A program made the position numbers and the translations under genes. DNA of 64,000 nucleotides from a virus: IMG/VR virus record IMGVR_UViG_3300010885_026047, positions 32,001 through 96,000 of that record. The stretch is one strand, 5' to 3'. Below, piece by piece: positions 33,001 through 49,698 of the stretch. Position 1 is the first letter of the stretch, and the number at the start of each line of letters is the position of its first letter. Under the pieces are notes generated by a model. It was given only the letters and a program-made list of their open reading frames with translations. It had not been told where the DNA came from and did no database searches.

Positions 33001-33028
33001 AGAGTATCCACCAGGGTACTCTTTTTTT
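33001..33028 (+). terminator. intrinsic terminator
   Basis: AGAGTATCC/GGGTACTCT plus T run. Confidence 0.7.
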
Positions 33029-33126
33029 ATGTGCAAAAATAAACTTTTACAAACACTTGGTTTTATCAGATGCACTTTATACTTTTGTTACATCAAACAA
33101 CTTTAAAAGTTTAAAACACTAAGACG

Positions 33127-33903: not shown

Positions 33904-34286
33904 CACTTAATACATATAAGCGGGTTATAGGTGGTATGGAACTAGCAAGTATCATACTCTTTCAGTTACGTGTACACTGTTATCTAAAGTCTATCCAGTT
34001 AACTGAGATGGAAGAGAAGTACACAGTGGAGATGGCTATAACCGGTGGTACGTGGGACCTGAAGAAGTTCTGTGATCATGTAGTAGAGAAAGGTCTAAGT
34101 TACTCTACAGAAAGTTCAAGGACTATACTCGATCACTTAGAAACTAAAGGGTTAGTAGTTAAAGAAGGACACTACAGAAAGATGGTTAAGTTAAACCCGG
34201 AGATGGGTATACAGGTAGAGGGGACGGTGTTAGTGGATATAAAACTTAGCAACTATATAGCAAATGGTTCCAAGGAAAGCAACTGA
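33891..34286 (+). CDS. putative winged-helix DNA-binding protein
   Basis: S.R..L..LE.KGLVVK...LNP pattern. Confidence 0.55.
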   Translation: MEQVTLNTYKRVIGGMELASIILFQLRVHCYLKSIQLTEMEEKYTVEMAITGGTWDLKKFCDHVVEKGLSYSTESSRTILDHLETKGLVVKEGHYRKMVKLNPEMGIQVEGTVLVDIKLSNYIANGSKESN

Positions 34287-34626
34287 GTTGGGTAATGAGT
34301 TTGCTGACAAGAAAGGTATACCGAGAGCACATATGTTAGATATGCTCACGTTCTACTACAGGGATATCCGGACAGTCTGCAGTAAGTTACAACATCCAAA
34401 CGTATCTATCAACGGACTAGGTTACATGAAACCCTCAGTACCGAAGCTAAAGAAAGGAAGAGCAGGAGCTATAAAGTGGACTAAGGACTTTGACAAGACA
34501 GGTAAGGATAAAACTACACAGTACTATACCAAGAAAGAGAACGCTGCACTTATGGACAAGATGATAGATACTTGCATAGAGATACGTAAAGCACACAAGT
34601 TAGTTAAAAACCTAAGAAAGTCATGA
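34264..34626 (+). CDS. HU/IHF-like DNA-binding protein
   Basis: N-terminal helices then NVSINGLGYMKP (compare V.I.GFG.F); basic. Confidence 0.55.
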   Translation: MVPRKATELGNEFADKKGIPRAHMLDMLTFYYRDIRTVCSKLQHPNVSINGLGYMKPSVPKLKKGRAGAIKWTKDFDKTGKDKTTQYYTKKENAALMDKMIDTCIEIRKAHKLVKNLRKS

Positions 34627-35090
34627 TCTGGAGAGAGAAACTAAAACTTGCATGGGATAACAGAGCACAGATAGCAGATGGTTTCTGGAACGTGTACATA
34701 GGTTGTAAACCAGAGATAGAAGCTGAAGCACTTAGGAGAAAGACTATCTGTGAGAGTAATGTCTGTGGATCCTATGACAAGGATGGTAAACCGGAGACAT
34801 CTATGATACCAGGTCAACCAGCTTGTTCTATTTGTCACTGTAACATAAATGCTAAAGCTGCATGTACGTTTTGTTGGTGTGCTCTTCTTGACAAACAGAT
34901 ACTGAAGTTGAAAGAACTACGACCTGAGACAAACATACAAGATATAGATAGTTGTAGGGTACAGATCAAAGAGTTACAGGAGCAAGGTATAGATATGGGG
35001 CTAGATCCTTTGTGGGATGTGATGATGACAAAAGACCAGGACGATCTGATAAAGTCAAAGGAGTACACAGAGCAGTTTAAAAATAGGTAG
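34623..35090 (+). CDS. Cys-rich zinc-binding protein
   Basis: R..IC..NVC...CSICHC...K..C..C.C. Confidence 0.65.
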   Translation: MIWREKLKLAWDNRAQIADGFWNVYIGCKPEIEAEALRRKTICESNVCGSYDKDGKPETSMIPGQPACSICHCNINAKAACTFCWCALLDKQILKLKELRPETNIQDIDSCRVQIKELQEQGIDMGLDPLWDVMMTKDQDDLIKSKEYTEQFKNR

Positions 35091-35092
35091 TT

Positions 35093-35296
35093 ATGGAACC
35101 AAAGAAGTACTGGTGGATACACTACGATAGAGTTGGTATACAGATGTACCGTGAAAAAGAAACTGTTATAGATATACATCCGTTTCTATGGTTAAGTGAA
35201 ACGAAAAAACAAATGAAGTGGGAAGTCTGGTTAGTGAACTGGAAGTTGATAGACGTAACTGAGTATAACCTTTGGAAAGAACTAAACGATAAGTAG
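35093..35296 (+). CDS. small hypothetical protein
   Basis: 67-aa coupled ORF. Confidence 0.55.
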   Translation: MEPKKYWWIHYDRVGIQMYREKETVIDIHPFLWLSETKKQMKWEVWLVNWKLIDVTEYNLWKELNDK

Positions 35297-36114
35297 TGCT
35301 AAAGTTTCAAGAACAAAACCATCTATACTTTTCTCCTGATCAACCAGACAGAAAGTGGACTTCTATCACTGCGATAGTTGGGATGTTGCATGAACCGTTT
35401 AAGAGAGAAGATACTGCTTGGAAGTGTGCTCTGAGAAAACCTACAGACAAGTACCCGAACAAATGGTGGGGTATGACACAAGAACAGATACTTGCTGCTT
35501 GGGATGGAGAAGGTAAACGTAGCCAGGAACTCGGAAACTGGTATCACAACAAACGGGAAAGAGAACTTTGTGAGCCTGATAACCAGTTGATGTGGGGAGT
35601 AAGACCTCCAATAGTTGAAGATGGTATAAAGATATCCCGTGATCAGAAACTTGAAGATGGTATATACCCTGAACACTTAGTCTATCTTGACACTGCAGGT
35701 ATCTGTGGACAGAGTGACTATGTTGAGGTTAAAGAACACTCACTGAGGATACGAGACTACAAAACTTCCAAAGAGATCAAAAGAAAAGGTTTTGAGAGTA
35801 GTTGGTCTGGAGAGAAGATGATGACTGGTCCGGTAAAACATCTTGGAGACTGTGAGTACTGGCACTATGCTTTACAACTTTCTCTCTATGCTTACTGTAT
35901 ACAGAGACATAACCCAAGACTTACACATGTAGACTTAGCTGTAGAACATATAAAGTTTGTTTTGGAAGGAGAAGATAAGTTTGGCTATCCCATTGTTCTT
36001 AGACATATCAACGGAGACCCCGTAGTTAAAGAGATAGAACTTGTCCAACTCCCATACTTACTGAAAGAGGTCAAAGCAGTTTTAGAGTGGCTTAAAACAA
36101 AACAAAAGGACTGA
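35296..36114 (+). CDS. PD-(D/E)XK nuclease (RecB/Cas4-like)
   Basis: H.Y, SIT, GN..H, PE, GQSD, IRDYKTS, Y.LQLSLYAY. Confidence 0.9.
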   Translation: MLKFQEQNHLYFSPDQPDRKWTSITAIVGMLHEPFKREDTAWKCALRKPTDKYPNKWWGMTQEQILAAWDGEGKRSQELGNWYHNKRERELCEPDNQLMWGVRPPIVEDGIKISRDQKLEDGIYPEHLVYLDTAGICGQSDYVEVKEHSLRIRDYKTSKEIKRKGFESSWSGEKMMTGPVKHLGDCEYWHYALQLSLYAYCIQRHNPRLTHVDLAVEHIKFVLEGEDKFGYPIVLRHINGDPVVKEIELVQLPYLLKEVKAVLEWLKTKQKD

Positions 36115-37226
36115 TGAGGATACAAGTAGTAGCAAGACATAAGCAGGGTTGCGACTGGTTCAGATGTGTTCTACCAGCTATATATCTACAGAAAGATATA
36201 GAGTGGTGTAAGAACAACTCTATAGAGATGCTATGGATAGCTCACGATGAACTGAAGATAGACTGTGACATACTTATCTACAACAAACTTATAGCTACTA
36301 CTATAGAACGTTTAAAGCACCTGAAGAAGAACGGCATGAAGATAGTGGTAGACGTAGACGATCACTGGATACTTCCTCCCGGACATGCTCACTACCAACA
36401 GTGGATGACTTGTACAGAACCAGGACAAACCAAGAGTAACTCTGAACTAACTGAAGAACACATGAGACTGGCAGATGTAGTTACTTGCACATCTATGAGA
36501 CTGCAGGAAGTTATCAGGAAGTTCAACAAGAACACAGTAGTTATACCAAACGCTCTCCCCTTCGGTCATGGGTTATACCAGCAGGGTATCAGGGAACCAA
36601 ACGATAAGATGGTGTTTCTCTATGCCGGAGGGGTTAGTCACTTACCTGATGTAGAACTACTAAAGGGGAAGTTTCAACGCATAGGCACTGACCCCTACTT
36701 AGTACAGAGAGCAGAGTTCGTACTTGCCGGATACGAGAAAGAGAAACAGAAGTTATACAAAACCAAACAGGACTACGAACAGAGAAATAGTAACTTTACA
36801 ACCAAAGATATACATGGCCTCTATGACGATATGGTAAGTATCTTTAAACAGACCAATAGTTACAAAGTTATAAATTCAGAACCTGTAAACAAGTATATAA
36901 GTTGTTATGATCAGGCAGATGTAGTACTTGCACCTCTGGTAGAAAACACCTGGAACTCGTTCAAGAGCAACTTAAAAGTTCTTGAAGCAAGCTCAAGAGA
37001 ACTGCCGATCATATGTTCTGCAGTAGCTCCATATTCTGACCTTAGACCTTGTGAAGGGATCATGTTTGTAGAAAAGTCATCTGACTGGATAGACTATATC
37101 AGAAAGTGTGTGAAAGAACCACAGTGGACAAAAGATATGGGTTTACAGTTAGCAAGTTGGATAAGAGAAGAGTACAACCTTGTAAGGTGGAACTTAGTAA
37201 GACAACAGTTATATAGTACTTTATAG
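36114..37226 (+). CDS. GT-B (GT4-like) glycosyltransferase
   Basis: G..W.R..LP, VVDVDDHW, ADVVT, VIPNA, AGG.SH..D, LAPL...WN..KSNLKVLE, PIICS...PY. Confidence 0.85.
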   Translation: MRIQVVARHKQGCDWFRCVLPAIYLQKDIEWCKNNSIEMLWIAHDELKIDCDILIYNKLIATTIERLKHLKKNGMKIVVDVDDHWILPPGHAHYQQWMTCTEPGQTKSNSELTEEHMRLADVVTCTSMRLQEVIRKFNKNTVVIPNALPFGHGLYQQGIREPNDKMVFLYAGGVSHLPDVELLKGKFQRIGTDPYLVQRAEFVLAGYEKEKQKLYKTKQDYEQRNSNFTTKDIHGLYDDMVSIFKQTNSYKVINSEPVNKYISCYDQADVVLAPLVENTWNSFKSNLKVLEASSRELPIICSAVAPYSDLRPCEGIMFVEKSSDWIDYIRKCVKEPQWTKDMGLQLASWIREEYNLVRWNLVRQQLYSTL

Positions 37227-37227
37227 T

Positions 37228-37431
37228 ATGAACATGATAGCAAGATACAGACTAAGAGCAGCTATACAGTTCCATATCATCATGAGAGATAACGCTATCT
37301 ATGCAACACATCATGGTATATGTATAGGTTCTCCAAGTCACGATGTCTATGTTAAGATGCAAAGTGATACTGCAGAAAGAGAACAGAGATGTATAAACCG
37401 TATAGAGAAACTTTTAAAACGATATAAGTGA
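37228..37431 (+). CDS. small hypothetical protein
   Basis: 67-aa coupled ORF. Confidence 0.5.
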   Translation: MNMIARYRLRAAIQFHIIMRDNAIYATHHGICIGSPSHDVYVKMQSDTAEREQRCINRIEKLLKRYK

Positions 37432-37988
37432 TAAAACTGTTTGACATAAGTGGAGGTAAAGTGATCCCAAGTGAGCATGTGTATGTCATACCTCGGCTAA
37501 AGAAGATCATGGAACTATACCCAGATCAGTACCTGGAGATATATAGTTACTTGTTCTACACTACATGTCCTGATAGTACTATGAACCCATATGTCAACCA
37601 ACCTGAAGATATGAGAGAAGAGGTTATCATAGCAGACCTTGGACCATCTTTCTCTCTTGACGATAAGGTTATAGAAGAGACAAGAAAGTGGTGTGAGAAG
37701 ATGTACGAGACACCTACACTACGATCCTGGAGAGGTGCCAAGAAGATGCTGGATAAGGTTGGTATATACCTGGCAGATAGCGAGATAACAGACGGTAAGG
37801 ACACTAATGGTATGTTGATAGACAGGTTTATGAGCAAGCTTGGAGACTATCATGACATCTACAAGAAGATGGATAACGAAGTAAAAGAAGAACAAGCCAA
37901 AGTCCGAGGCAATGTAAAAATACCGTATTTCCAGCGACCAGGGTACATAGATAAAAAACAAGAAGACGATGATAACACTGAAGGATAA
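37428..37988 (+). CDS. conserved crAss-like protein, candidate terminase small subunit
   Basis: KLF......YETPT.R...C-terminal VRG; recalled as the gene type that precedes TerL in crAss-like genomes. Confidence 0.45.
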   Translation: MIKLFDISGGKVIPSEHVYVIPRLKKIMELYPDQYLEIYSYLFYTTCPDSTMNPYVNQPEDMREEVIIADLGPSFSLDDKVIEETRKWCEKMYETPTLRSWRGAKKMLDKVGIYLADSEITDGKDTNGMLIDRFMSKLGDYHDIYKKMDNEVKEEQAKVRGNVKIPYFQRPGYIDKKQEDDDNTEG

Positions 37989-38017
37989 ACATCCCGTAAC
38001 CGGAGAACAACTTGACG

Positions 38018-38605
38018 ATGAGTGAACCACTAGTAACTTTTATAGCTGTCTGTCACAACGAGGTAAGACATAACAGACCCTTCATAGACTCTATGCTCAG
38101 TCAGATAGACACTAACTGGAAAGCTATCGTATATCATAATGGTCCAAACGAAAGGATGAAAGAATGGGTAGAGAGTTACCATGACGAAAGACTTATCTAC
38201 ATGGAGAGTGCTGTAGATGAAGGTAACTGGGGTACTGCTAACCGACAGAGAGCTATAGATACCTGTACCACATCTTATATAGTACAAACTTCTATACAAG
38301 ACTACTGGCTACCCCAAGCCGTGAAGTATATCAACGAGACTATAGTAAAACATGACCCGCAGATAATGGTATGGGATAGCATCAACCACTTAGTAGGACC
38401 TTGTCTGAAGTTGGATGGTCAACTTGCATGGAGTAAGTGTGACTGGGGTCAGTTTGCTTTAAAGACATGGATAGCTAAGAAGGTAGGTATAAAAAGAGGC
38501 GATGTGTATTGTGGAGACTGGGCTTTTGTAGAAGAGGTACTGAAGTCAGGATATATAAGTAAACAACCTATAAAACTCGGAGCAATCCTGACATGTCATA
38601 ACTAG
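38018..38605 (+). CDS. GT-A (GT2-like) glycosyltransferase
   Basis: VTFI...S.L.Q..TNW..IV..NG, NWG..NR, QD.Y, D.GQF, GDW.F, L..HN. Confidence 0.8.
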   Translation: MSEPLVTFIAVCHNEVRHNRPFIDSMLSQIDTNWKAIVYHNGPNERMKEWVESYHDERLIYMESAVDEGNWGTANRQRAIDTCTTSYIVQTSIQDYWLPQAVKYINETIVKHDPQIMVWDSINHLVGPCLKLDGQLAWSKCDWGQFALKTWIAKKVGIKRGDVYCGDWAFVEEVLKSGYISKQPIKLGAILTCHN

Positions 38606-38744
38606 AAACTATGAAAGAAGTAGGAGATACTATAACTATAAAAGCTGATGATGGAAGTCAGGAAACTGGAACTATCTATGCAATAGTTTCTGGACACTAC
38701 TGGGTAAACTTTTCTTTTGGTTCACTTGCAATACGGATAGACTT

Positions 38745-39419
38745 ATGAAGAACATACCATGTATACTTATAAATCGTGACCGACTTTCTTGTACAGAGAA
38801 GTTAGTTGATCAGTTACTCTTACTAGGTTACACAAACTTGTATATCTTAGATATGGATAGTAGTTATCCGACTCTCCTGTCTTGGTACAAAGACAACAAA
38901 AACTTCACTCTTATACAGTCAGAGAACACCGGACACAAAACTTTGTGGGAGAAAAACCTGTTACGTAACTTGTTTTCAGAACATGAGTGGGTTGCAGTTA
39001 CAGACTCCGATATAGCTTTGTCTCCAGATACACCAAAAGGTTTTATAGAGCAGATGATAACTGTAGCTAAGGACTTCAGAACAGATAAAGTTGGTTTGGC
39101 TATAAAGTACAAAGACATAACAAACCCTCACTTGTTCAAGATCATAGAACCGATAGAGAGTAACTACTGGAAGAACAGGTTACCCCATCCAAGATATACT
39201 ACATACTCGGCACCTGTAGACACCACTCTCTGTGTAGTGAGACCAAACAAACCTTTTCAGTACCAGGCTGTGAGGTTAGCTGACTGGTCTATACAACATC
39301 TTGACTGGTACATGGACTTTGAGAAGTTAACAGAAGAGCAGACTTACTACTTTGAACACGCAGATCCAAAGGTATCAACAACTAAACAACACTATCTGAA
39401 GTGGAAAAACAAGGGCTGA
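38745..39419 (+). CDS. GT-A (GT2-like) glycosyltransferase
   Basis: I.NRDR, ILD..SSY, VTDSD (DxD), KVG.A, APVDTT, HL.WY. Confidence 0.8.
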   Translation: MKNIPCILINRDRLSCTEKLVDQLLLLGYTNLYILDMDSSYPTLLSWYKDNKNFTLIQSENTGHKTLWEKNLLRNLFSEHEWVAVTDSDIALSPDTPKGFIEQMITVAKDFRTDKVGLAIKYKDITNPHLFKIIEPIESNYWKNRLPHPRYTTYSAPVDTTLCVVRPNKPFQYQAVRLADWSIQHLDWYMDFEKLTEEQTYYFEHADPKVSTTKQHYLKWKNKG

Positions 39420-40069
39420 TAGTCATCACGTATAGAGATAGAGCAACACATCTATCTTGTTTGTTATCCCAGTTACAAAAGTACTGGCCTCAGTTCGATG
39501 TCTGTATCTGTGAGCAGTTGGATAGTTCCACATGGAACAAAGGTCTGTTGTACAACGTTGGGTTTAAAGAACTCGGTTATAAGTATGACTATCTGATACT
39601 ACACGATGTAGACTTTATACCTGCATGGGATGAAGTAGACTATAGCTTTACAGAAGTACCCTGTATGATAGCTGGAGCAGCTTCACAGTTTAACTATCAG
39701 TTACAGTTTCCTACTTTCTTTGGTGGAGTACTTACCTGCAGTAAAGAACACTACGAACTTGTGAACGGTTTCTCTAACCAGTTCAAAGGTTATGGGGGAG
39801 AGGACTGCAGTTTCAGAAACAGTTTTGTAGAGAAAGGTTTACAGCCAGGGGTTAAGATGGGAAGGTTTGAGTGTTTCGCACATCCTAAGCCAGACATATC
39901 CATAGGTAGTGAGTTCTGGAAGTCAGAAGACTACCAACATAACTGGAAACTGGTACATCAACCAAGAGACTTTAACGAGGGGCTTTCAACAGTAAGTTAC
40001 AAGCTAACGGAACAAACTATACAAAACAACATCACACACTTATATATAGACACATGTCAAAGAACTTAG
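39401..40069 (+). CDS. GT7 beta-1,4-galactosyltransferase-like protein
   Basis: YRDR..HL, EQ....WNKG.L.NVG, HDVD, FFGGV, VNGFSN.F.GYGGED. Confidence 0.9.
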   Translation: MEKQGLIVITYRDRATHLSCLLSQLQKYWPQFDVCICEQLDSSTWNKGLLYNVGFKELGYKYDYLILHDVDFIPAWDEVDYSFTEVPCMIAGAASQFNYQLQFPTFFGGVLTCSKEHYELVNGFSNQFKGYGGEDCSFRNSFVEKGLQPGVKMGRFECFAHPKPDISIGSEFWKSEDYQHNWKLVHQPRDFNEGLSTVSYKLTEQTIQNNITHLYIDTCQRT

Positions 40070-41208
40070 GAGTTATCGGTATCGGCAAACTTGGACTATC
40101 TTTTGCACTACTTGCAGAAGAGTCAGGTTATACAGTTATAGGTTGTGATAACCGACTGGACTATGTACACTCTTTGAACGAGAGAACTTACACTTGCTCA
40201 GAACCTTATATCAACCAGTATCTACAAACCTATCAGAGGTTTAGAGCAGAAGCTAACTTGTTCAATGTAGTAAACACCTGTGATATACTTTTCTGCTTTG
40301 TAGCCACACCTTCTTTACCTGATGGTTCTTATGACCACAGTGCTATAGAAAGTGTAGTAGCGGATATACAGAGACTTCACGTACAAGGTCTGCAGATGGA
40401 CAACAAAGTACTGGTTATCGGTTGTACCACTATGCCGGGTTATACACAGACTGTAGCAGCTATGTTAGAGTCTACAGGTATGAAAGTAGCTTATAACCCG
40501 GAGTTTATAGCACAAGGTTCCATAGTAGACGGTTTGAGAAACGCAGATATGGTTCTGATGGGAGTGTCTGAAGACAGTACTTATCACTCCTTACAAGCTA
40601 TCTATAGAACTATCATGACTAAAGAACCACTGATATCCAGGATGTCACCAACTGCTGCCGAGATAACCAAGATCTCCATCAACTGTTTTCTAACCATGAA
40701 GATAGCTTACGCAAACATGATAGGTGAGATAGCTATCAACTCTAACTTAGAACCTGAAGTACCTACTATACTACAAGCTATAGGTTCAGATACACGGATA
40801 GGTTATAAGTATCTCAACTATGGTTTTGGATACGGTGGACCATGTTTACCCAGAGACATGAGAGCTTTAGGTGTGTACATGGAAGATCTTGGTATCAAAG
40901 CACGTATACCTTCTGCAGTAGACAACACAAACGACTTTCACTCTGAGTACCTGACACGATACTTTATAGCACAAAACCCAAACAAAGAAGTACCTTTCCA
41001 GTTCACACAACTTACCTACAAACGAGGTGTAGATATGTTAGTAGAGAGCCAACAGTACAAACTTTGTCTGAAGTTGTTACACATGGGATACTCAGTAGCT
41101 ATAGACGAGAGCGATAACGTACTTATCCAAGTGAAACCGGAACTTGAACAGTACGGAGACAGAGTGATATATGGAGTAGTAGATAATGCATACAAGATAA
41201 GTATATGA
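40054..41208 (+). CDS. ugd: UDP-glucose/GDP-mannose 6-dehydrogenase family protein
   Basis: GIGKLG, VATP, T..PG, NPEF, AE..K...N.FL..KI, GFGYGGPCLPRD with catalytic Cys. Confidence 0.9.
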   Translation: MSKNLGVIGIGKLGLSFALLAEESGYTVIGCDNRLDYVHSLNERTYTCSEPYINQYLQTYQRFRAEANLFNVVNTCDILFCFVATPSLPDGSYDHSAIESVVADIQRLHVQGLQMDNKVLVIGCTTMPGYTQTVAAMLESTGMKVAYNPEFIAQGSIVDGLRNADMVLMGVSEDSTYHSLQAIYRTIMTKEPLISRMSPTAAEITKISINCFLTMKIAYANMIGEIAINSNLEPEVPTILQAIGSDTRIGYKYLNYGFGYGGPCLPRDMRALGVYMEDLGIKARIPSAVDNTNDFHSEYLTRYFIAQNPNKEVPFQFTQLTYKRGVDMLVESQQYKLCLKLLHMGYSVAIDESDNVLIQVKPELEQYGDRVIYGVVDNAYKISI

Positions 41209-41295
41209 TAGGATTTATTGCTACAAAGTACAATCTATATGTGCTGAAACTACAGAGGAATTACAAACGAAAAATGAGACACAAACGACTGATAT

Positions 41296-42084
41296 ATGAA
41301 CAGAATAACAGACTACAGCAAACTAGCAGATGATATCACGAACTGGATACGTGACTATGCAACAACCAACAATATCAAATCACTGGTAGTAGGTGTATCT
41401 GGTGGGATAGACTCTGCAGTAGTTTCAACTTTGTGTGCGAGAACAGGATTACCTGTATGGTGTTGTGTGATAGATATACATAGCAATCGGGATCATTTGG
41501 ATCTTGCCAGAACTCATATAGACTCTATACGAGAAAAAGGGATAGTGTCTTATCTATATAGTAGTCTATCTTCTACATACAACAGTTTCCTAATGGATGG
41601 ACCTGTTTCTAACAGTGCTCATACGAGAGCTAACCTGAAGAGTCGATTACGGATGATATTGCTATATGCTACTGCATGTACTGAACAAGGTATAGTAGTA
41701 GGTACAGGTAACAAAGTAGAAGACTTTGGTGTAGGTTTCTATACCAAGTATGGAGACGGTGGTGTAGATATATCACCTATAGCAGACCTGTATAAGACTG
41801 AGGTGAGAGAACTTGGTAGATATCTGGGTATATCACAAGAGATACTTGACGCTGCACCTACAGACGGACTATGGGGAGAGAACCAAAAAACTGACGAAGA
41901 GTGTCTTGGTGCAACTTACGAAGAGCTTGAGTGGGCTATGGAAGAGTTTGTAGATACTGGAGAACCCTTACATAGTATGTACTATACAGACAGAGAAAAT
42001 GAGGTACTTACTATCTACAAGAAACTTAACAAACAGAACCAACACAAGATGTTACCTATACCTGTATATAAACTGAACCAATGA
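41296..42084 (+). CDS. nadE: NH3-dependent NAD+ synthetase
   Basis: GVSGGIDS, NLKSRLRM, VGTGNKVE, GFYTKYGDGG, DLYKTEV, APTDGLW, TDE. Confidence 0.95.
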   Translation: MNRITDYSKLADDITNWIRDYATTNNIKSLVVGVSGGIDSAVVSTLCARTGLPVWCCVIDIHSNRDHLDLARTHIDSIREKGIVSYLYSSLSSTYNSFLMDGPVSNSAHTRANLKSRLRMILLYATACTEQGIVVGTGNKVEDFGVGFYTKYGDGGVDISPIADLYKTEVRELGRYLGISQEILDAAPTDGLWGENQKTDEECLGATYEELEWAMEEFVDTGEPLHSMYYTDRENEVLTIYKKLNKQNQHKMLPIPVYKLNQ

Positions 42085-42094
42085 TAAGGTTACT

Positions 42095-42802
42095 ATGAAA
42101 TTAATATTCGACATAGGTGCTAATGTAGGAGATATGACTGATGTGTATTCTCAGAAGGCTGATACTGTAGTAGCCTTTGAACCTAATCCATCTATGGTAG
42201 AAGAGTTGACCAAGAGGTTTTTTGGTAATCCTAATATCATTATAGATAGGAGAAGCTTAGATAATAAAGTAGGTACTAATATACTTATGACCTCACCTTA
42301 TGCAGCTAGTTTATCTACTTTCTCCGAGGAGTGGACTAAGAATACCAGATTTTTAGGACAGCAGTGGAATGAGCATATCGTAGTTCCTACTATCACGATA
42401 GACTCTGCTATAGAATATTACGGTGTACCAGACTATATTAAAATAGATGTAGAAGGCTATGAGTATCAGGTTATTAAAGGACTAAGTATGTTACTACCTA
42501 ATACAGTTGTATGTTTTGAATGGGTAGAGGAACAATTAAGTTCAATACTGTCTATCATTACTTATGTAAACACACTGGGATACAAAGCATTTTCCTATAC
42601 CAATATGGATAATGTAATGTGGGAAGAAGACCTTACCTGGGGTTCCTGGGAGAAACTTAATTTCCAGAAGAATATAGTACCTGATAGACATCTTAGGTGG
42701 GGGATGATCTACTTTAAGAAAGAGAGAAAAGAAAGTGATCGTCCTTTTCAGTTTGATGGGGATATATATAACTTAACAGATTTTATACACATAGAGAAAT
42801 AA
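42095..42802 (+). CDS. FkbM-family SAM methyltransferase
   Basis: DIGANVG, AFEPNP, IKIDVEGYE. Confidence 0.9.
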   Translation: MKLIFDIGANVGDMTDVYSQKADTVVAFEPNPSMVEELTKRFFGNPNIIIDRRSLDNKVGTNILMTSPYAASLSTFSEEWTKNTRFLGQQWNEHIVVPTITIDSAIEYYGVPDYIKIDVEGYEYQVIKGLSMLLPNTVVCFEWVEEQLSSILSIITYVNTLGYKAFSYTNMDNVMWEEDLTWGSWEKLNFQKNIVPDRHLRWGMIYFKKERKESDRPFQFDGDIYNLTDFIHIEK

Positions 42803-42811
42803 ACTACAAAA

Positions 42812-44353
42812 ATGGACAATAGAAAGATCTCCATATGTATACCTTCATGGAATAGGTATCAACTTACTATTGATTCTGTCATTCAGGTAATAGATGATAG
42901 TAGAATAAGTGAGATAGTTATAGTTGATGACTGCAGTACTAATGGTGAAGGTGTTAGGCTACAAGAGTCCTACAGTGGTAACCCAAAAGTGAAGTTCTAC
43001 ACAAACCCTGTTAACTTAGACTGTTACCGGAACAAACACGAAGCAGTACACAAAGCAAGTAACGAGTGGTGTATACTATTTGATAGTGACAACGTTCTGA
43101 CTACACAGTATATAGATACTTTGTTTGCTATATCTGACTGGGACAAACAGACTATCTATCAACCTTCTTTTGCAAGACCTCACTTTGACTTCAGACCACA
43201 TGCAGGTATAACTTTCACTTACGAGAACATAGCTGACTATATACATACCAATGTTATGACAGCTATGAACGCTATGAACTTCTTCATAAACAGAAGTGAG
43301 TATCTTAGAGTTTGGGACGGTTCTATAGACCCTGTTACCAGTGACAGTATCTACTTCAACTACTGTTGGTTACTGGCAAGAAACAAGTTCTACATAACAC
43401 CGGGACTTGAGTACGACCACTTAGTACACAGAGGTCACTACCAGGATAACGTACATAGAACCGGAAACTTTCACAACGAACTACTTGAAAAGATAAGACA
43501 TATCAGAAACCATATGCCACAGATAGAAACAGTACAAGAATCAGTTATAGAGCAAGTCACAAACGCTGTAGAAGTGTCAGACAAGATAAGTATGGATACT
43601 ATCTACGCTGCTTATGTGAACCTATCTATCCGACCAGACAGGAATGAGCACATGATACGAGAGTTGACAAGAGTAGGTTTACCTATAGAACGGTTTAACG
43701 CTTTTACACCTGACGAGGTCTACAAGTTTATACCTGCAGACAAGTTACAAGCTATGGAACGAAGAGGTACGAGAGGTGCTATAGGATGCCACTACGGACA
43801 AGTAGCTATCATGGAAGAAGCACTGAAGAGAGGTCAGTCAGCTTGGGTTCAAGAAGACGATCTCGTTTACTGTGACGATATACAAGACCGGTTAAAAGTT
43901 ATCTTCGACTATCTGAACACTCATGAATGGGATATCTTCTGGTTAGGTGGAACGTATCATAAAGACGCAACATGGCACAAGTCAGAGAACGGCAGACACA
44001 CTCACCCTGATCTGCAGATGTGTACCTGTACGTTGAACAGAGACTGGGAACCTACAGATAACCAGGATATAGTTAGAACCTATGGAGCTTTTAGTACACA
44101 TAGTTATATAGTAAACGTAAAGAGTTTACCAAAGATCCTTGACCTGTTAGACCAAAACGTTTACAGGAGCATGGGCATCGACTGGATCATGCTTTTGATA
44201 CAACCAGAGCTACACACCTTTGCTCACAGTTACGGTTGTGCTAAACAGTTTGATAACCAGAGCAACATAGGTTCAGGTATAAGTTACTTTTCCGGCTTCG
44301 TTAACTTAGGCTCACATTGGTTTTTAAAAGATATGAAGGATGCAAATAGATAG
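42812..44353 (+). CDS. GT2 + GT25 glycosyltransferase fusion
   Basis: ISICIP.WNR, IVDDCS and FDSDN; then VNL..RPDR, RFNA, GAIGC, EDD, WDIFWLG, HSYIV. Confidence 0.85.
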   Translation: MDNRKISICIPSWNRYQLTIDSVIQVIDDSRISEIVIVDDCSTNGEGVRLQESYSGNPKVKFYTNPVNLDCYRNKHEAVHKASNEWCILFDSDNVLTTQYIDTLFAISDWDKQTIYQPSFARPHFDFRPHAGITFTYENIADYIHTNVMTAMNAMNFFINRSEYLRVWDGSIDPVTSDSIYFNYCWLLARNKFYITPGLEYDHLVHRGHYQDNVHRTGNFHNELLEKIRHIRNHMPQIETVQESVIEQVTNAVEVSDKISMDTIYAAYVNLSIRPDRNEHMIRELTRVGLPIERFNAFTPDEVYKFIPADKLQAMERRGTRGAIGCHYGQVAIMEEALKRGQSAWVQEDDLVYCDDIQDRLKVIFDYLNTHEWDIFWLGGTYHKDATWHKSENGRHTHPDLQMCTCTLNRDWEPTDNQDIVRTYGAFSTHSYIVNVKSLPKILDLLDQNVYRSMGIDWIMLLIQPELHTFAHSYGCAKQFDNQSNIGSGISYFSGFVNLGSHWFLKDMKDANR

Positions 44354-46373
44354 TAGAAAGCAGTTAGGAGACTTGATAAAGCACTTAGGTTTAACCAAAG
44401 GTGTTGCTGAGATAGGTGTAGCAGAAGGCTCGTTCTCATCACAGATCATAGAGTGGGGGACTTTTCCACTTTACTTAGTAGACAGGTGGTTATCTGTGCC
44501 TGAAGACTATGGAGATAGTGGTTTTGACCAGGAGTGGCACGATACAAACTACAGGTCAGTGCTTGAGAGAACGCAACCTCATGGAGGCAAGTGTATAGTC
44601 TTGAGAGGGGATAGTTCGGAAATGGCTAACTCTGTACCGGATAACTCTTTATCTTTAGTCTATCTGGATGCAAACCATACCTATGAAGGAGTTAAACGAG
44701 ACATAGAAGCATGGTATCCAAAGGTTGAAGAAGGTGGTATCATAGCAGGGCATGACTACTTCAGTCAGGACTACGGGGTGCATACAGCTATAAACGAGTT
44801 TGTGAACGGAAGGTTTGATATCATACCTATACCTGAGAACGAACTAAACAACGCATCTTTTTACTTTATAAAACGACAAAAACAAAAAACAATGGCAGTA
44901 ACATGTTACTTTTCAGGAAGATTGGGAAACATCTTTTACAACATAGCGATGTTGATAGCTTACGCAAAAAAGCACAACTTACAGTACTATATACCCACAG
45001 AAGCTATAGCTTGTACTAACCGGGTTCCAACTATAACAGTTCCATCTACAGGACCTAAACCGGTGAACCCAAGTGTGTATAGAGAACCGAACATGTCTCA
45101 AGGTAACCCGTACTATCACGAGATACCTTATATGGACAACGTGCTCTTTGATGGCTACTACCAGTCCTTCAAGTACTTTAACTGGTGCAGACAGGATGTA
45201 CTGGATGCTTTTAACCTGCCACATGTAACAGAGTATGGAGTAGTGGGTGTATCTGTACGGAGAGGTGACTGTGTAGGTTCTGAACCGTTCCCCATGGCCC
45301 CTACTATCTACTATCACAGAGCTATAGAGCACATGCAGAAACTAGGACATAACCACTTCCGTTTGTATAGTGATGATATACCTTGGTGCAAAGAAGAGTT
45401 TACAACAGTCAACTATCCAGGAGCAACCTTTGAGTTTTCTGAAGGTAGAACAGAACTGGAAGACTATACATCACTTACACAGTGCGAACATAACATAACT
45501 GCACGAAGTACGTTCTCTCTGACGGCAGCATGGATGAACCAGAACCCGGACAAGATAGTACTTGTACCACAAGAGAACATGTGGTGGAAGAGCCAGAACA
45601 GAAACCTGTTAACAGACAGTGGGTTTACACAGATCTTCTTTCCGCAAGAGTATCATCCTCACATGCTGAAGTACACTTACACTTATAAGGACATCAGTTT
45701 CAAGCTTATCATACAGAACTACTGGAAAGACATCTATAGAGGTGTGGAACAAGAACCTTTGTACCCGGACTACTGCAAGATGTTAGACCTTGTACAGCAG
45801 TGTAGTAAAGACAGATATGTGTTGGATATAGGTGCAAATCACGGTATCTTTGCTGTACCTTGTTCTCTGTTAGGATATAAAGTGTTAGCGTTTGAACCAG
45901 TAGAAAGAAACGTAAACAGTATACAGTTAGCAGCTATAGAAAACAAACTTACTAACTTTACCATATGCCCATATGCTCTTTCTGACAAGACTGAAACTAT
46001 AGATATCTACGTACCGGAGTGTTCAGATAACGCCTCTTTGAGTAAAGACGCTTCTATCTCAAACATGATAAAGAAAGACTACAGTACAGAGACTATACAG
46101 TGTGTAAGGTTTGATGACTGGATAAAAGAGTACGAAGTATATAAAGATATAGGCTTTATCAAACTTGATGTACAGGGAGCAGAGTACAAGATAGTAGAAG
46201 GTATGAAAGAGTTCCTGGAACAAGCACATAACCTTACTGTAGTGTGTGAGTATGAACACCATTTAGTTACTATGGGCCACTCTTTTGAACAGATGGACAA
46301 CCTGTTTACTTCTTTAGGTTTCGAGTACAAAGGACATTTAACACCAAACGATAAGATCTTTTACAAAGCATAA
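44340..46373 (+). CDS. Methyltransf_24 + GT11 (alpha-1,2-fucosyltransferase-like) + FkbM methyltransferase triple fusion
   Basis: EIGV..G/YLDANHTY/GGIIAGHDY; GRLGN, GYYQS..YF, VRRGD, SDD..W, STFS..AAW; DIGANHG, AFEP, KLDVQGAE. Confidence 0.85.
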   Translation: MQIDSRKQLGDLIKHLGLTKGVAEIGVAEGSFSSQIIEWGTFPLYLVDRWLSVPEDYGDSGFDQEWHDTNYRSVLERTQPHGGKCIVLRGDSSEMANSVPDNSLSLVYLDANHTYEGVKRDIEAWYPKVEEGGIIAGHDYFSQDYGVHTAINEFVNGRFDIIPIPENELNNASFYFIKRQKQKTMAVTCYFSGRLGNIFYNIAMLIAYAKKHNLQYYIPTEAIACTNRVPTITVPSTGPKPVNPSVYREPNMSQGNPYYHEIPYMDNVLFDGYYQSFKYFNWCRQDVLDAFNLPHVTEYGVVGVSVRRGDCVGSEPFPMAPTIYYHRAIEHMQKLGHNHFRLYSDDIPWCKEEFTTVNYPGATFEFSEGRTELEDYTSLTQCEHNITARSTFSLTAAWMNQNPDKIVLVPQENMWWKSQNRNLLTDSGFTQIFFPQEYHPHMLKYTYTYKDISFKLIIQNYWKDIYRGVEQEPLYPDYCKMLDLVQQCSKDRYVLDIGANHGIFAVPCSLLGYKVLAFEPVERNVNSIQLAAIENKLTNFTICPYALSDKTETIDIYVPECSDNASLSKDASISNMIKKDYSTETIQCVRFDDWIKEYEVYKDIGFIKLDVQGAEYKIVEGMKEFLEQAHNLTVVCEYEHHLVTMGHSFEQMDNLFTSLGFEYKGHLTPNDKIFYKA

Positions 46374-46382
46374 ACAAACTAT

Positions 46383-47858
46383 ATGATACGAGAAGACAAG
46401 TTACACACAAAAACCGCTATACTGTTTTCAGGAAGTGCTTACAATGTGAAGTTCTCCCTGCAGTCACAACTGGAGAACTTCATCCTACCTAACAACGCTG
46501 ATGTCTTTATACTGACAGAGAGACGTTGTAAGAACAGAAAAACGGTCCATGGAGTTATCCCTGATGGCTTTGACCCATACTGGCATGAGAAAGCAGCAAC
46601 TATAACCCATGAAGAGACTGAACTATCTGATAACGATATACAGTTTATCAAAGACACTTTAGGGGACAGGTTAAAGGGTTTCTATCTGAAAGATGATATG
46701 TCTGACTATGTAAACTATCTCAGGAACCAGAGAAGTAAGATGATGGAGATAGCTAACAACTACCGTCAGTATAACATAGACAACAACTTACCTAAGAGTT
46801 TTGGTTTTGCTATAGGTAACCCTGATGATGGTAACCTCCGGTGTGTAGTAGACCAGTATGGACATGTTCGTAAGTGCTTTGAGTTGATGGCAGAGTACGA
46901 ACAACAGCACGGTTTTAAGTATGACTATGTAGTTCGTGCCCGGATAGACTTTATAGTACCTGACGTGATAGACGTAGAACAGTATACGCTCAACCACGAC
47001 CAACAGTACTTGTATGTTATGGGCAGTGTTAACCGTGATCCTTTTGAGTTTGCTGACGAGTTCTGTTGGTTCTGTAAACGACCTATGGCAGATAAGCTCT
47101 TTCCATATCTGGACAGGTTGGGTATGTTAGATGACCGGAAGTATAAGACTTACCTGGAAGAACAAGCTAACGACTTCAGGTTTGGAGCAGAGACACAGTG
47201 GGCTATCTTGTTGAAAGAGTTACAGTTACCTATCATAAACGTAAAGATCTTTAGGTCAGCTAAGTTTACAGATGGACAAGACGGATATGACTACATGAAC
47301 TATATGTATCGGTGGGACATGACCAACATAGAAGAGGAGTATAAGTTAGTTTGCGACTGTCCAAGTGATATCAACGAACACTTACCAAAACTACGTGAGT
47401 ATGGAGAGCAGTGTACACATATAACTGAACTTGGAACACGGTGGGGTAACAGTACTATAGCTTTTATGGCAGCAAAACCTGGTAAGTTTGTATCTTACGA
47501 TGTGCAGTACAACTCCCGGATAGACTACCTGAAAAGAGTAGCTAAGGACAACGAGATAAACTTCCACTTCCGGTTAGAGAACGTAGAACAGGTAGAACTG
47601 GAAGAAACAGACCTGCTCTTTATAGACACAAACCACCATGTAGAACAGTGCAGTGAGGAACTCAGACTACATGCAGATAAAGCAAAGAAGTTTATAGTTT
47701 TCCATGACACAACTACTTTCTGGGAGAAGGGACAAGGGCATGAAGTCGGTCACGGTTTGAAGTATGCTATAGAACCGTTCTTAGAGCAACACCCAGAGTG
47801 GGTACAAGACTACCGAGCTATGAACAACAACGGTTTACTGATACTGAAGAGGATATGA
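46383..47858 (+). CDS. putative glycan-modifying domain + class I SAM methyltransferase fusion
   Basis: TAILFSG...DVFI...YDYVVRARID N-domain; SDINEHL, ELGTR.G.ST, DLLFIDT.H, FHDT, NNNGL C-domain. Confidence 0.75.
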   Translation: MIREDKLHTKTAILFSGSAYNVKFSLQSQLENFILPNNADVFILTERRCKNRKTVHGVIPDGFDPYWHEKAATITHEETELSDNDIQFIKDTLGDRLKGFYLKDDMSDYVNYLRNQRSKMMEIANNYRQYNIDNNLPKSFGFAIGNPDDGNLRCVVDQYGHVRKCFELMAEYEQQHGFKYDYVVRARIDFIVPDVIDVEQYTLNHDQQYLYVMGSVNRDPFEFADEFCWFCKRPMADKLFPYLDRLGMLDDRKYKTYLEEQANDFRFGAETQWAILLKELQLPIINVKIFRSAKFTDGQDGYDYMNYMYRWDMTNIEEEYKLVCDCPSDINEHLPKLREYGEQCTHITELGTRWGNSTIAFMAAKPGKFVSYDVQYNSRIDYLKRVAKDNEINFHFRLENVEQVELEETDLLFIDTNHHVEQCSEELRLHADKAKKFIVFHDTTTFWEKGQGHEVGHGLKYAIEPFLEQHPEWVQDYRAMNNNGLLILKRI

Positions 47859-48340
47859 TAGTGCAGTTTAAAGAACAGTTAGGGGACTTACTGAGAGAGC
47901 TAAACCTACCACTTACAGTACTGATGATAGGTGTGGGAGACGGAACTTTCGCCAAACAAGTTATGGACTGGGGGACTACTAGGTTATACTTGGTAGATAA
48001 GTGGGAAGGTTACGAACTCGATGACTCTTATCTGGGTGACTGGTTTGAAAACCCTTTGTTACAGGTAAGAGATAAACTGGCTATATACGACAAGAGACCA
48101 GAGCAGTATCTTATCCTGCAGGGAGACGAGAAAGAAACTCTGGAACATATACAGGACCAAAGTGTATCTCTGGTATATATGGATCAGGAAACCGTAGACA
48201 GAGAACTTATAGAACTATCTCTGGAGAAACTGGTAAACGGTGGTATCTTTGCATGTAAGTACAACGAAAGTGGTATAGAGCAACTATACAAGCTTATAGA
48301 TATACCAAGAGATAGAAGTGGTTACTTTATAAAACAATAA
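47855..48340 (+). CDS. divergent Methyltransf_24-like protein, paralog of the N-domain of 44340..46373
   Basis: QLGDL...IGV..G.F..Q..WG..LYLVD.W and GYFIKQ/FYFIKR shared; the DANH motif is lost. Confidence 0.65.
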   Translation: MIVQFKEQLGDLLRELNLPLTVLMIGVGDGTFAKQVMDWGTTRLYLVDKWEGYELDDSYLGDWFENPLLQVRDKLAIYDKRPEQYLILQGDEKETLEHIQDQSVSLVYMDQETVDRELIELSLEKLVNGGIFACKYNESGIEQLYKLIDIPRDRSGYFIKQ

Positions 48341-48343
48341 CTT

Positions 48344-49492
48344 ATGAACATACTCATAACCGGATCTGGAGGTTTTGTTGGCGGTCATCTTTGTAAACGA
48401 CTTTTAGAAGAAGGTCATACTGTTATAGGTGCAGATATCAAACCTATAACCGACTGGGATCAGTATAACTGTACAGACCATCACATAGTAGATCTTAGAG
48501 ATCAGTCAGCTATCGTATCTTTGTTTGGTTTATATGGTGTTTTTGACGAAGTATATACTTTAGCAGCAGACATGGGAGGTGCCGGTTACATCTTTACTGG
48601 AGAGCACGATGCTGATGTTATGCACAACTCGGCACAGATAAACCTAAACATAGCAAAAGCATGTGTTGACTATAAAGCAGGGAGAGTGTTCTACAGTAGT
48701 TCAGCTTGTATGTATAACCAAGACTATCAAGACGATCCGGCTAACCCTGGTTTAAAAGAGTATATGGGATGGCCTTTAAACCCTGATAGTGAGTACGGTG
48801 TAGAGAAAGGTTTCTCTGAACGTCTCTACAAAGCCTTTGAGAGAAACTACGGACTAACTGTACGGATAGCCAGGTTCCATAACATTTTCGGTCCACAAGG
48901 TACTTGGAAAGGTGGTAAAGAGAAAGCACCTGCAGCTATATGTAGAAAGGTTGCTGAGACACTTGAAGGTCCTCCAAAACACTACAAAAAGCTTACATGG
49001 GTAAAAGAGAATGGATCTACGGTACAGGACATAGTAAACACTAACTATACTATAACATATCCTCCTGTTTATAACACACTTATAAACGGTGAGAAAACTG
49101 CTGAAACTCTTGTACAAGGAGAACACTTAGACGATCTTTTTATACCGGGGACTATAGATATCTGGGGAGACGGTAAACAAACACGTAGCTTTCTCTACAT
49201 AGATGAGTGTATAGATGGGGTTATAAAACTGATGAGATCTGACTGTACAGATATAGTCAACATAGGTTCTGATGAGATGATCTCTATAAATGATCTGGCA
49301 AAGATGGTTATAGATATATCAGGTAAGAACTTAACTATCAACAACATAGATGGTCCTACCGGTGTAAGAGGGCGTAACTCCAACAACGATCTTATCTTTG
49401 AGAAACTTAACTGGAAACCGACACAACCACTTCGTACAGGTATGGAGAAACTTTATAACTGGGTAAACGAACAGGTATGCAGCAACAAGTAA
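48344..49492 (+). CDS. GDP-mannose 3',5'-epimerase-like SDR
   Basis: TGSGGFVG, LAADMGGAG, SSSAC.Y, YG.EK, RFHNIFGP, GGKEKAPAA.CRK, WGDGKQTRSF, GVRGRNS. Confidence 0.9.
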   Translation: MNILITGSGGFVGGHLCKRLLEEGHTVIGADIKPITDWDQYNCTDHHIVDLRDQSAIVSLFGLYGVFDEVYTLAADMGGAGYIFTGEHDADVMHNSAQINLNIAKACVDYKAGRVFYSSSACMYNQDYQDDPANPGLKEYMGWPLNPDSEYGVEKGFSERLYKAFERNYGLTVRIARFHNIFGPQGTWKGGKEKAPAAICRKVAETLEGPPKHYKKLTWVKENGSTVQDIVNTNYTITYPPVYNTLINGEKTAETLVQGEHLDDLFIPGTIDIWGDGKQTRSFLYIDECIDGVIKLMRSDCTDIVNIGSDEMISINDLAKMVIDISGKNLTINNIDGPTGVRGRNSNNDLIFEKLNWKPTQPLRTGMEKLYNWVNEQVCSNK

Positions 49493-49698
49493 ACGATCCG
49501 ATATGGCAAGTAGTTCTGCAGATAGAGAAGAACTACATGATGGTTTACAAGGGGCAAGATGTAACTGAGTTTATATCTGCTCCAGACAAAGAAGCAGCTA
49601 TAGACAAAGCACTTAGAGCTAACGATATGGAACGATCACATATACCTGAAGTAGCTACAGTAAAAGGAGTACGACAACTGGAAGAACATGAAGAGTAG
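49477..49698 (+). CDS. small hypothetical protein
   Basis: 73-aa ORF bridging the epimerase and TerL genes. Confidence 0.5.
   Translation: MQQQVNDPIWQVVLQIEKNYMMVYKGQDVTEFISAPDKEAAIDKALRANDMERSHIPEVATVKGVRQLEEHEE

Follow-up and report, generated by a model that had tools for sequence, protein, structure and literature searches.

The stretch analysed here (the window, 64,000 nucleotides) comprises bases 32001-96000 of the IMG/VR virus record IMGVR_UViG_3300010885_026047, a single linear contig of 113,639 bp with a CheckV completeness of 88%. Between positions 36114 and 49492 its plus strand carries a run of genes that together encode eight to nine glycosyltransferase (GT) domains, five S-adenosylmethionine (SAM)-dependent methyltransferase domains, a nucleotide-sugar dehydrogenase, the NAD synthetase-family protein NadE and a GDP-mannose 3',5'-epimerase (GME). 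An initial annotation had counted about seven GT domains plus one GT-like domain, five methyltransferase domains and the same three further enzymes, and comparisons with Pfam, TIGRFAM, PHROG and solved structures bear this inventory out. The run occupies a slot bounded by an exonuclease, a TerS candidate and TerL in a freshwater crAss-like phage, and very probably represents an intact, expressed-looking and horizontally mobile phage module for glycan synthesis that shares a transcription unit with the genes for packaging and the portal. The clade comparison below draws on 80 IMG/VR loci (given L-numbers), chosen from the 589 stretches matched in a scan with a TerL profile.

Some of the enzyme calls fall below the Pfam cut-off, namely the GT4-like and small GT2-like GTs and two domains of the Methyltransf_24 type (MT24), and these are backed by PHROG matches, paralogy or homologue searches. 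The GT4-like gene, which sits between the exonuclease and the TerS candidate, has homologues at 55% identity in L001/L002, 45% in L004 and about 26% in T4-like contigs, and the small GT2-like gene at 49% in L001/L002 and 41% in L004. The 224-aa product further on is a possible GT: its Atlas neighbours include GT2-type clusters with PF00535 in 14% of members, which serves as a lead only, and it is 56% identical to its counterpart in L001/L002. The GT7-type enzyme shares 51% identity with those of L001/L002 and L005. The dehydrogenase, of the UDP-glucose dehydrogenase (UGDH) type, is 45% identical to SSSM7_259 of cyanophage S-SSM7 and 41-47% identical to homologues in T4-like contigs and L082, and NadE is 48% identical to SSSM7_258. 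The best solved homologue of NadE, the Francisella NadE 3fiu, is an NMN synthetase. The UGDH and NadE genes (40054-42084) also adjoin, in either order, in S-SSM7 and at least four other T4-like contig types. As a matter of gene order, this adjacency suggests a functional coupling within the glycan module, through NAD+ supply or through amidation of a carboxylate, for instance that of a uronate.

The remaining genes include several fusions. The GT25 half of the GT2-GT25 protein is 55-66% identical to counterparts in L001/L002 and L005 and 28-32% identical to homologues in T4-like contigs. For the MT24-GT11-FkbM protein, one 678-aa homologue was recovered at 78% identity, along with about 27 clusters of GT11-FkbM proteins at 55-74%, on contigs of up to 133 kb. 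The 491-aa protein is 60% identical to its homologue in L082, and its C-terminal MT24-type domain is widespread. An AlphaFold2 model of its DUF7796-type GT-A domain (pLDDT 86.8) finds GT-A enzymes in all of the top Foldseek matches in the PDB (TM-score about 0.38); among viral models in BFVD, its matches (to E 1e-10) are proteins of Catovirus, Tupanvirus and CroV, the chlorovirus protein M177L and proteins of several cyanophages, again all GT-A. The stand-alone MT24 protein is a paralogue of the MT24 domain in the three-domain protein (35% identity, E 5e-19); it probably starts at ATG 47855, overlapping the preceding stop codon, because homologue alignments begin at residue 20 of the longer GTG open reading frame (ORF). 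The GME resembles the Arabidopsis enzyme over its full length and aligns with it at the motifs SSAC, YGxEK (YxxxK) and GGxEKAPAAxCRK, which we take to hold the catalytic Cys, the Tyr-x3-Lys pair and the Lys motif of the plant enzyme. Homologues at 46-53% identity are found in many T4-like cyanophages.

Features of the cassette, its surroundings and comparable loci (positions are those of the window unless a locus is named; aa, amino acids)
Feature	Position	Strand	Evidence or remark
Upstream boundary: intrinsic terminator-like hairpin (33000-33023) with T-run, then TAnnTTTG at 33080	33000-33087	+	
Five small coupled genes opening the operon (258, 131, 120, 155, 67 aa), no function assigned	33127-35296	+	
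PD-(D/E)XK exonuclease, left anchor of the cargo slot	35296-36114	+	phrog_298, 1.3e-17; in 57 of 80 relatives
GT-B/GT4-like glycosyltransferase	36114-37226	+	PHROG 7162 'glycosyltransferase', 3.6e-59; Pfam 25.7 bits, cut-off 27
67-aa coupled ORF, no function assigned	37228-37431	+	
186-aa conserved protein, candidate TerS by position	37428-37988	+	Found in 68 of the 80 relatives, mostly 0-800 bp before TerL
Small GT2-like (GT-A) glycosyltransferase	38012-38605	+	PF00535, 22.4 bits, cut-off 23.3
224-aa protein, possible GT-A glycosyltransferase (weak)	38745-39419	+	Anp1, E 0.007
GT7-type (beta-1,4-galactosyltransferase family)	39401-40069	+	N domain PF13733, 51 bits; C domain PF02709, 59 bits
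Nucleotide-sugar 6-dehydrogenase, UGDH type	40054-41208	+	TIGR03026, 209 bits, above cut-off
NadE, NH3-dependent NAD synthetase family	41296-42084	+	PF02540, 161 bits; TIGR00552 above cut-off; PDB 3fiu, 1.4e-36
Stand-alone FkbM methyltransferase	42095-42802	+	PF05050, 63.6 bits
GT2-GT25 two-domain glycosyltransferase	42812-44353	+	PF00535, 52 bits; PF01755, 41.6 bits
MT24-GT11-FkbM three-domain protein	44340-46373	+	PF13578, 49 bits; PF01531, 55.6 bits; PF05050, 71 bits
491-aa protein: DUF7796-type GT-A domain (aa 9-310) and MT24-type methyltransferase (aa 315-491)	46383-47858	+	
Stand-alone MT24-type methyltransferase	47855-48340	+	Longer GTG ORF, 47798-48340
GME (SDR, EC 5.1.3.18)	48344-49492	+	PDB 2c59 (Arabidopsis GME), E 1.3e-86, in two segments flanking an insertion
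GME insertion (about 64 aa) from portal SH3-like wing domain	48977-49168	+	tblastn to own portal
Coupled 73-aa ORF between GME and TerL	49477-49698	+	
TerL, right anchor of the cargo slot	49688-51943	+	phrog_6681, 1.7e-58
NUMOD3-type homing endonuclease between TerL and portal	51906-52616	+	PF07460; phrog_314, 5.5e-24; here in only 4 of 80 relatives
Portal protein	52629-55385	+	phrog_6547, 4.4e-69; aligns with phicrAss001 gp20 (7qog, E 2.4e-11)
Source-type portal segment	53805-53987	+	Portal aa ~393-453
Terminator-like hairpin and U-run directly 3' of portal gene	55405-55435	+	RNA fold -20.1 kcal/mol, z -4.3; missed by simple scan
Major capsid protein (MCP)	56940-58679		
UGDH/NadE adjacency elsewhere	L081 16290-18210; L083, L085, L086, L096		
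Slot cargo in other clade members	L035 6037-6753; L055 9325-9987; L034 5080-6135; L072 6003-6881		ThyX, PhoH, or single GT4-like or GT2-like genes

The cassette genes lie on one strand and are translationally coupled, the largest non-coding gap being 87 bp; seeming gaps are filled by small ORFs that overlap or abut their neighbours (35093-35296, 37228-37431, 38611-38748 and 49477-49698). At the upstream end, the terminator-like hairpin is followed by a Bacteroidota-type -7 motif 47 nt before the first gene, for which its intergenic position is the one point of support, and of the small opening genes that at 33891-34286 is conserved in 38 of the 80 relatives. The hairpin behind the portal gene is the probable downstream boundary, or an attenuator, of the unit; the next clear terminator (58707-58727) follows the MCP gene. 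A terminator scan found no convincing terminator inside the run. Because the genes are coupled, flanked by terminators and interrupted by none, it is likely that the cassette is co-transcribed with the TerS candidate, TerL and the portal gene as one terminator-bounded unit of about 33080-55435. Coupling and boundaries thus uphold the earlier description of a co-oriented, tightly coupled cassette interleaved with packaging genes, with the TerS candidate inside and TerL immediately after. The TerS call itself is positional and could not be confirmed: the 186-aa ORF matched nothing in Pfam or PHROG, and its Atlas similarity to T5 TerS (0.78) is a lead only. Homing endonuclease genes recur around the module, with the NUMOD3-type gene behind TerL (51906-52616), an HNH/endonuclease gene after the MCP gene (58785-59735) and, in L002, a GIY-YIG/NUMOD3 gene (7680-8459) just before the GME. 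Such endonucleases may drive cassette exchange.

When the nuclease-to-TerL interval is compared across the 80 loci, as the initial annotation had proposed, it proves to be a general cargo hot spot throughout the clade. The gap between the exonuclease and the 186-aa ORF spans 5-1171 bp and that between the ORF and TerL about 0-2619 bp, compared to 1.3 kb and 11.7 kb in the window, and the medium-sized slots of other relatives are filled by ThyX, PhoH or a lone GT gene of the GT4-like or GT2-like type. Related cassettes are found among the clade loci only in the nearest relatives. In L001/L002, whose TerL is 59% identical, the order is GT4, an ORF, GT2, a 229-aa protein, GT7, GT2, GT11, DUF5672-GT25, MT24, FkbM, a GIY-YIG endonuclease and GME; in L005 it is GT7, GT2, GT11, FkbM-GT25, GT34, MT24, FkbM, an epimerase and a GT11-like gene; L004 carries a four-GT version. 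The genes common to these cassettes are 40-66% identical, a divergence approximately that of TerL. The same domains are joined differently from one relative to the next, as GT2-GT25 and MT24-GT11-FkbM in the window, DUF5672-GT25 in L002 and FkbM-GT25 in L005, and this re-fusion is a Rosetta-stone sign that points to a single pathway for all of them. Three relatives that are 99-100% complete have no GT11 anywhere in their genomes, and the cassette is therefore accessory. The initial annotation had named absence or decay in related phages, beside colinearity with a host lipopolysaccharide (LPS) or capsule locus, as observations that would count against its proposal; decay was not seen, and the nearest relatives conserve the cassette.

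Beyond the crAss-like clade, a core of UGDH/NadE, GT2, GT11, GT25, FkbM and GME recurs in conserved order in T4-like phages, including S-SSM7. The GME cluster of S-SSM7 contains a methyltransferase, an 'NAD synthetase' directly beside a 'UDP-glucose dehydrogenase' and four GTs, and identities to the window reach 46% for GME, 48% for NadE and 45% for UGDH. A scan seeded with FkbM recovered viral contigs, 37-207 kb long, on which the genes run GT4 ... NadE/UGDH ... (GT2) GT11-GT25-FkbM-(FkbM)-GME, and the order GT11-GT25-FkbM-GME is present in L083-L097. Of five such contigs tested, four encode a Gp23 capsid protein of the T4 type, and a crAss-type TerL is present in none of them; the flanks of L096 gave no blastn match to deposited phages. 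The usual reading of the homologous cyanophage clusters is host-surface modification, proposed without any test (PMC9602691, PMC12801897). That the kind is already described in the T4-like cyanophages S-SSM7, S-SCSM1 and S-SCSM2R weakens the interpretation given in the initial annotation.

In bacteria, no colinear locus was found in a scan of 185,579 prokaryote species (one genome per species), which was seeded on the GT11-FkbM protein only and was not exhaustive. The matches covered the FkbM half only, at 23-34% identity, and no locus extended beyond FkbM and a distant SDR; the colinear host LPS or capsule locus envisaged in the initial annotation did not appear. Composition points in the same direction. 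The genome is extremely depleted in AAT/ATT, with an observed/expected ratio (O/E) of 0.17 genome-wide, and the ratio is 0.00-0.19 in cassette genes, 0.26 in NadE and 0.03 in TerL, at a cassette GC of about 0.40. Since all of its genes but the stand-alone FkbM (42095) share this depletion, the cassette is by its composition a long-time resident of this phage lineage. We also considered that the cassette might have been captured recently from a host LPS locus, and rejected this given the depletion shared with the phage and the absence of a colinear bacterial locus in the scan seeded on the GT11-FkbM protein only. Within the otherwise AAT-purged cassette lies a tract of about 1.2 kb (~41900-43100) with near-normal AAT/ATT and low GC. 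The deviating gene, FkbM at 42095-42802 (O/E 0.72, GC 0.349), is most similar to the FkbM half of the FkbM-GT25 fusion of L005 (50% identity), and from its sequence the tract has the look of a recent import, by recombination, from a relative that is not AAT-purged.

A hydropathy scan of the contig's 295 ORFs of at least 60 aa found none with more than three transmembrane (TM)-like segments, and those with three are all of 129 aa or less; in the cassette proteins the scan found no credible TM segment, as expected from the earlier description of the enzymes as soluble. Searches of the contig for an initiating transferase (Bac_transf), for ThyA (PF00303) and TGT/DpdA (PF01702) and for a sugar nucleotidyltransferase (NTP_transferase) gave no match while their controls were positive. 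A search for TET/JBP likewise gave none, but there the positive control also went without a match. The absence of a TM-rich flippase or polymerase, an initiating transferase or a ThyA-type base hydroxymethylase, first noted for the window, therefore extends across the 113.6-kb contig at its 88% completeness. The pathway had also been called self-supplying, which holds in part: the phage modifies nucleotide sugars itself, but as no sugar nucleotidyltransferase was found it relies on the host for UDP-Glc, GDP-Man and SAM.

The GME carries an insertion that has no counterpart in the plant enzyme. Their alignment is interrupted between residues 204 and 271, opposite a 5-residue loop of the plant GME, and the intervening segment matches the portal protein of the phage itself (42% identity over 64 aa, E 5e-12) as well as portals from about 57 relatives. 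Its identity to 45 portal segments is only 28-39%, in an alignment that is dominated by portals and averages 76% column identity, yet it retains every column that is invariant among them: L, G, Y, K, L and the G-E-H motif. The right-hand junction falls at a W-G motif common to both proteins (ETWGG in the portal, D/E-I/V-WGDG in the GME). A 79-aa AlphaFold2 model of the insertion is a small beta domain (pLDDT 83.5), and eight of its ten best Foldseek matches in the PDB are phicrAss001 portal chains; at E 0.5-1.2 these are not significant, and the ranking is used only beside the sequence homology. In a HMMER alignment, the source segment corresponds to residues ~335-384 of phicrAss001 gp20. Residues 337-380 of gp20 form SH3-like wing loops that interdigitate with the cargo protein C1 inside the crAss001 capsid (Bayfield et al., PMC10172136). 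The insertion is absent from the GME of the closest relative, L002, and no other protein of 210-669 aa containing it was found among 5.8 billion searched at word-index sensitivity. Judged by these sequence comparisons, the insertion is private to this phage and derived from the SH3-like wing domain of the portal.

That every invariant position is retained speaks against a neutral relic. It is improbable, in our estimate, that the inserted domain is functional in the sense of docking the GME on the portal-wing cargo protein and so recruiting it to the assembling procapsid, where it would either channel L-galactose to portal-proximal or cargo proteins or be packaged and ejected into the next host. 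If it were so, phages would have a new way to bring a metabolic enzyme into the virion, through a copied docking module of a structural protein.

The carrier is a freshwater crAss-like phage of a podovirus-type lineage. Both TerL (phrog_6681) and the portal (phrog_6547) match crAss-type PHROGs, at 1.7e-58 and 4.4e-69. TerL is only about 25% identical to those of deposited Crassvirales; its environmental relatives at 45-66% identity number more than 3000, and many of these lie on contigs 100-137 kb long. As a single-protein query against viral contigs TerL gave no match; the L-numbered loci came from an alignment (profile) query. Among the environmental TerL homologues, P0002, P0027, P0028, P0040 and P0111 are 1065-1139 aa long and contain Hom_end/intein-type domains (PF05204, PF05203, PF14528), which makes them intein-containing terminases. 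The sole public sequencing run found with the sequence is a freshwater DNA metagenome, probably the source sample; no RNA run with it was found. Three of the few intergenic regions contain TAnnTTTG motifs (28902, 32293 and 33080, plus strand), 12-47 nt before start codons. These intergenic motifs would fit -7 promoters of the Bacteroidota type as well as a Bacteroidota host, although the genome-wide motif count is about that expected by chance.

From the enzyme families, a chemistry can be proposed in which L-galactose is provided through GME and GT11 and a hexuronate through UGDH, followed by multiple O-methylations. GT11 is the alpha-1,2-fucosyltransferase family, whose members use GDP-L-sugar donors. 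The GME would supply L-galactose, and GT11, which always co-occurs with it, would transfer this sugar. The dehydrogenase would make UDP-hexuronic acid, with the adjacent NadE either sustaining the NAD+ that is consumed or amidating the carboxylate. Further residues would be added by the GT2, GT25, GT7, GT4 and DUF7796 GT-A domains, and the five FkbM/MT24 domains, several of them fused to GTs, would O-methylate the sugars. All of these steps would be cytoplasmic, on an acceptor that needs no phage lipid carrier or flippase.

Several known systems resemble parts of this scheme. The closest are the 'LPS / cell-wall' clusters of S-SSM7 (SSSM7_252-265), S-SCSM1 and S-SCSM2R, in which a lytic phage likewise encodes nucleotide-sugar epimerases, a UDP-glucose dehydrogenase beside an NAD synthetase, a methyltransferase and GTs that include GT11 and GT25; function is unproven in these clusters as in the window. 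By its clustered enzymes, orthology (45-48%) and gene order, the cassette belongs to the S-SSM7 type. Unlike the cyanomyovirus clusters, which lie in the T4 hypervariable region, it sits in a TerS-TerL packaging operon of a crAss-like phage, and it differs from them in the fusions GT2-GT25, MT24-GT11-FkbM and GT-A-MT24, in the extra GT7, small GT2 and DUF7796 GT-A, and in the portal-derived insertion of its GME. The kind of cluster is thus already catalogued in T4-like cyanophages; distinctive here are the crAss-like lineage, the packaging operon and the fusions, and new is the portal-derived insertion.

Chloroviruses and giant viruses glycosylate their capsids or fibrils in the cytoplasm, independently of the ER and Golgi, with nucleotide-sugar enzymes of their own and with O-methylated glycans as products, as exemplified by the GT-GT-methyltransferase A064R of PBCV-1 and the fibril clusters of Mimivirus. 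Like the chlorovirus type, the window encodes soluble multidomain proteins that join GTs to methyltransferases (MT24-GT11-FkbM, GT-A-MT24) and lack TM segments. It shares the DUF7796 GT-A fold with Catovirus, Tupanvirus, CroV and the chlorovirus protein M177L, a homology at the level of the fold and of one domain, and those viruses are eukaryotic. Seroconverting phages, with GtrABC, Wzy or O-acetyltransferases, are temperate and use integral-membrane proteins that act on the periplasmic side. A surface-glycan change directed by the phage would be parallel to theirs, whereas the window's contig has no TM-rich protein and no Bac_transf. Mycobacteriophages set the precedent for O-glycosylation of capsid and tail proteins by phage-encoded GTs (Freeman et al. 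2023, Cell Host Microbe, via PMC12619734 and PMC12801897). As those accounts summarise them, these systems also place soluble GTs beside structural genes, comparable to the single unit shared here with TerL and the portal, but the slot in the window also holds unrelated cargo in relatives. In the same summaries they comprise one to four GTs with no nucleotide-sugar or methylation module, and their glycans sit on C-terminal extensions of capsid or tail-tube subunits; the MCP of the window has no such extension.

By analogy with the mycobacteriophages, chloroviruses and giant viruses, we tentatively favour, at somewhat below even chances, one or more virion proteins of the phage as the acceptor, glycosylated late in assembly. 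On this reading the portal-derived SH3-like domain would tie the GME physically to the portal or cargo assembly site. Several points favour a viral acceptor: the phages between which the module moves have unrelated virions and, in at least one case, a host of a different phylum (S-SSM7 infects Synechococcus), the best structural relatives of the DUF7796 GT-A domain belong to giant viruses and cyanophages, the GT-methyltransferase fusions recall A064R of chloroviruses, and the GME carries a copy of the cargo-binding SH3-like domain of the portal. A number of observations weigh against it. The initial annotation had argued from the position beside TerL to a virion role, but the slot is a general site for unrelated cargo such as ThyX, PhoH or, in other relatives, single GTs, and adjacency to TerL is therefore weak evidence for a structural function. 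It had also proposed the capsid or the Ser/Thr-rich fibre at 28914-32006 (1030 aa, 28% Ser+Thr) as acceptors, and comparisons of the MCP and the fibre gave no signal linked to the cassette. The MCP has no Ser/Thr-rich terminal extension and aligns end to end, including its C-terminus, with cassette-free relatives. Two Gly-rich loop insertions that are private to it, of 13-15 and 18-19 residues, occur in none of 13 aligned relatives and are absent even from the cassette-bearing nearest relative, L002. Nor does the fibre co-occur with the cassette, as no homologue was found in cassette-bearing L002 (76% complete) and a partial one is present in a complete cassette-free genome. GT2, GT4, GT11 and GT25 are typical soluble transferases of O-antigen or lipooligosaccharide (LOS) synthesis that act on host lipid-linked acceptors, and the absence of phage export genes is therefore compatible with a target on the host surface. 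Finally, the contig is 88% complete, and the SH3-like insertion, being private to one phage, cannot explain the general function of the module.

A rival reading is remodelling of the host envelope, which we regard as rather unlikely. Here the soluble GTs and methyltransferases would act at the cytoplasmic face on undecaprenyl-linked intermediates of host O-antigen, capsule, LOS or protein O-glycans, and the flippase, polymerase or ligase of the host would export the methylated glycan; at the same, rather low likelihood the outcome would be altered receptors, which would block superinfection or stop progeny from sticking to debris. The typical role of these GT families in LPS and O-antigen synthesis is in keeping with this, as are the other host-directed auxiliary genes of the slot (PhoH, ThyX), the lack of any cassette-linked acceptor feature in MCP and fibre, and the 45-48% identity of GME, UGDH and NadE to genes of the S-SSM7 cluster, a kind of cluster so interpreted in the cyanophage papers. 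On the other hand, neither an initiating transferase nor a flippase, polymerase or ligase was found on the contig, and no colinear bacterial locus in the scan described above; the host acceptor would have to differ from case to case, since the same core occurs in phages with very different hosts, and co-transcription with late packaging genes would leave little time for the surface to turn over. The solubility of all enzymes, the lack of export machinery and the five methyltransferase domains would also suit a cytoplasmic product other than a virion surface glycan, either a free or carrier-bound polymethylated oligosaccharide, for which the cytoplasmic methylated polysaccharides of mycobacteria are a parallel, or glycosylated internal cargo proteins, with the SH3-like domain recruiting or packaging the GME via the cargo protein. 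That the insertion comes from a portal domain which binds C1 inside the crAss001 capsid fits the latter version, but the insertion is private to this phage and we know of no precedent in phages for such a product; we consider it distinctly improbable. Most improbable of all is hypermodification of DNA, whereby the GTs would build a glycan on a modified base and so evade restriction. Some phage GTs are able to add a variety of glycans to DNA as hypermodifications (Pyle 2024, cited in PMC12619734), and the AAT/ATT avoidance of the genome is an unusual anti-defence signature. DNA glycosylation systems, however, need a glycosylatable base, and neither a ThyA-type hydroxymethylase (PF00303) nor TGT/DpdA (PF01702) was found on the contig, 88% complete as it is. 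The GT families of the cassette also differ from the known DNA glucosyltransferase families, and to our knowledge neither sugar O-methylation nor a supply of L-galactose or uronate is known for DNA glycans.

For about fifteen years, the large glycan clusters of lytic aquatic phages have been listed under the label 'LPS genes', with no known target. The window adds to this picture one conserved core (UGDH/NadE, GT2, GT11, GT25, FkbM, GME) that travels between T4-like and crAss-like phages, and one cassette domain of a GT-A family that is enriched in giant viruses. As a defined set of about 12 genes, the cassette makes the question of virion glycosylation versus host-surface modification sharply testable. 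The chimera of GME and portal is a separate and unusual case, in which a structural docking domain has moved into an enzyme. If the virions are glycosylated, phage self-glycosylation would extend from actinophages to abundant environmental Crassvirales-like phages, with a bearing on receptor masking, grazing and immune recognition.

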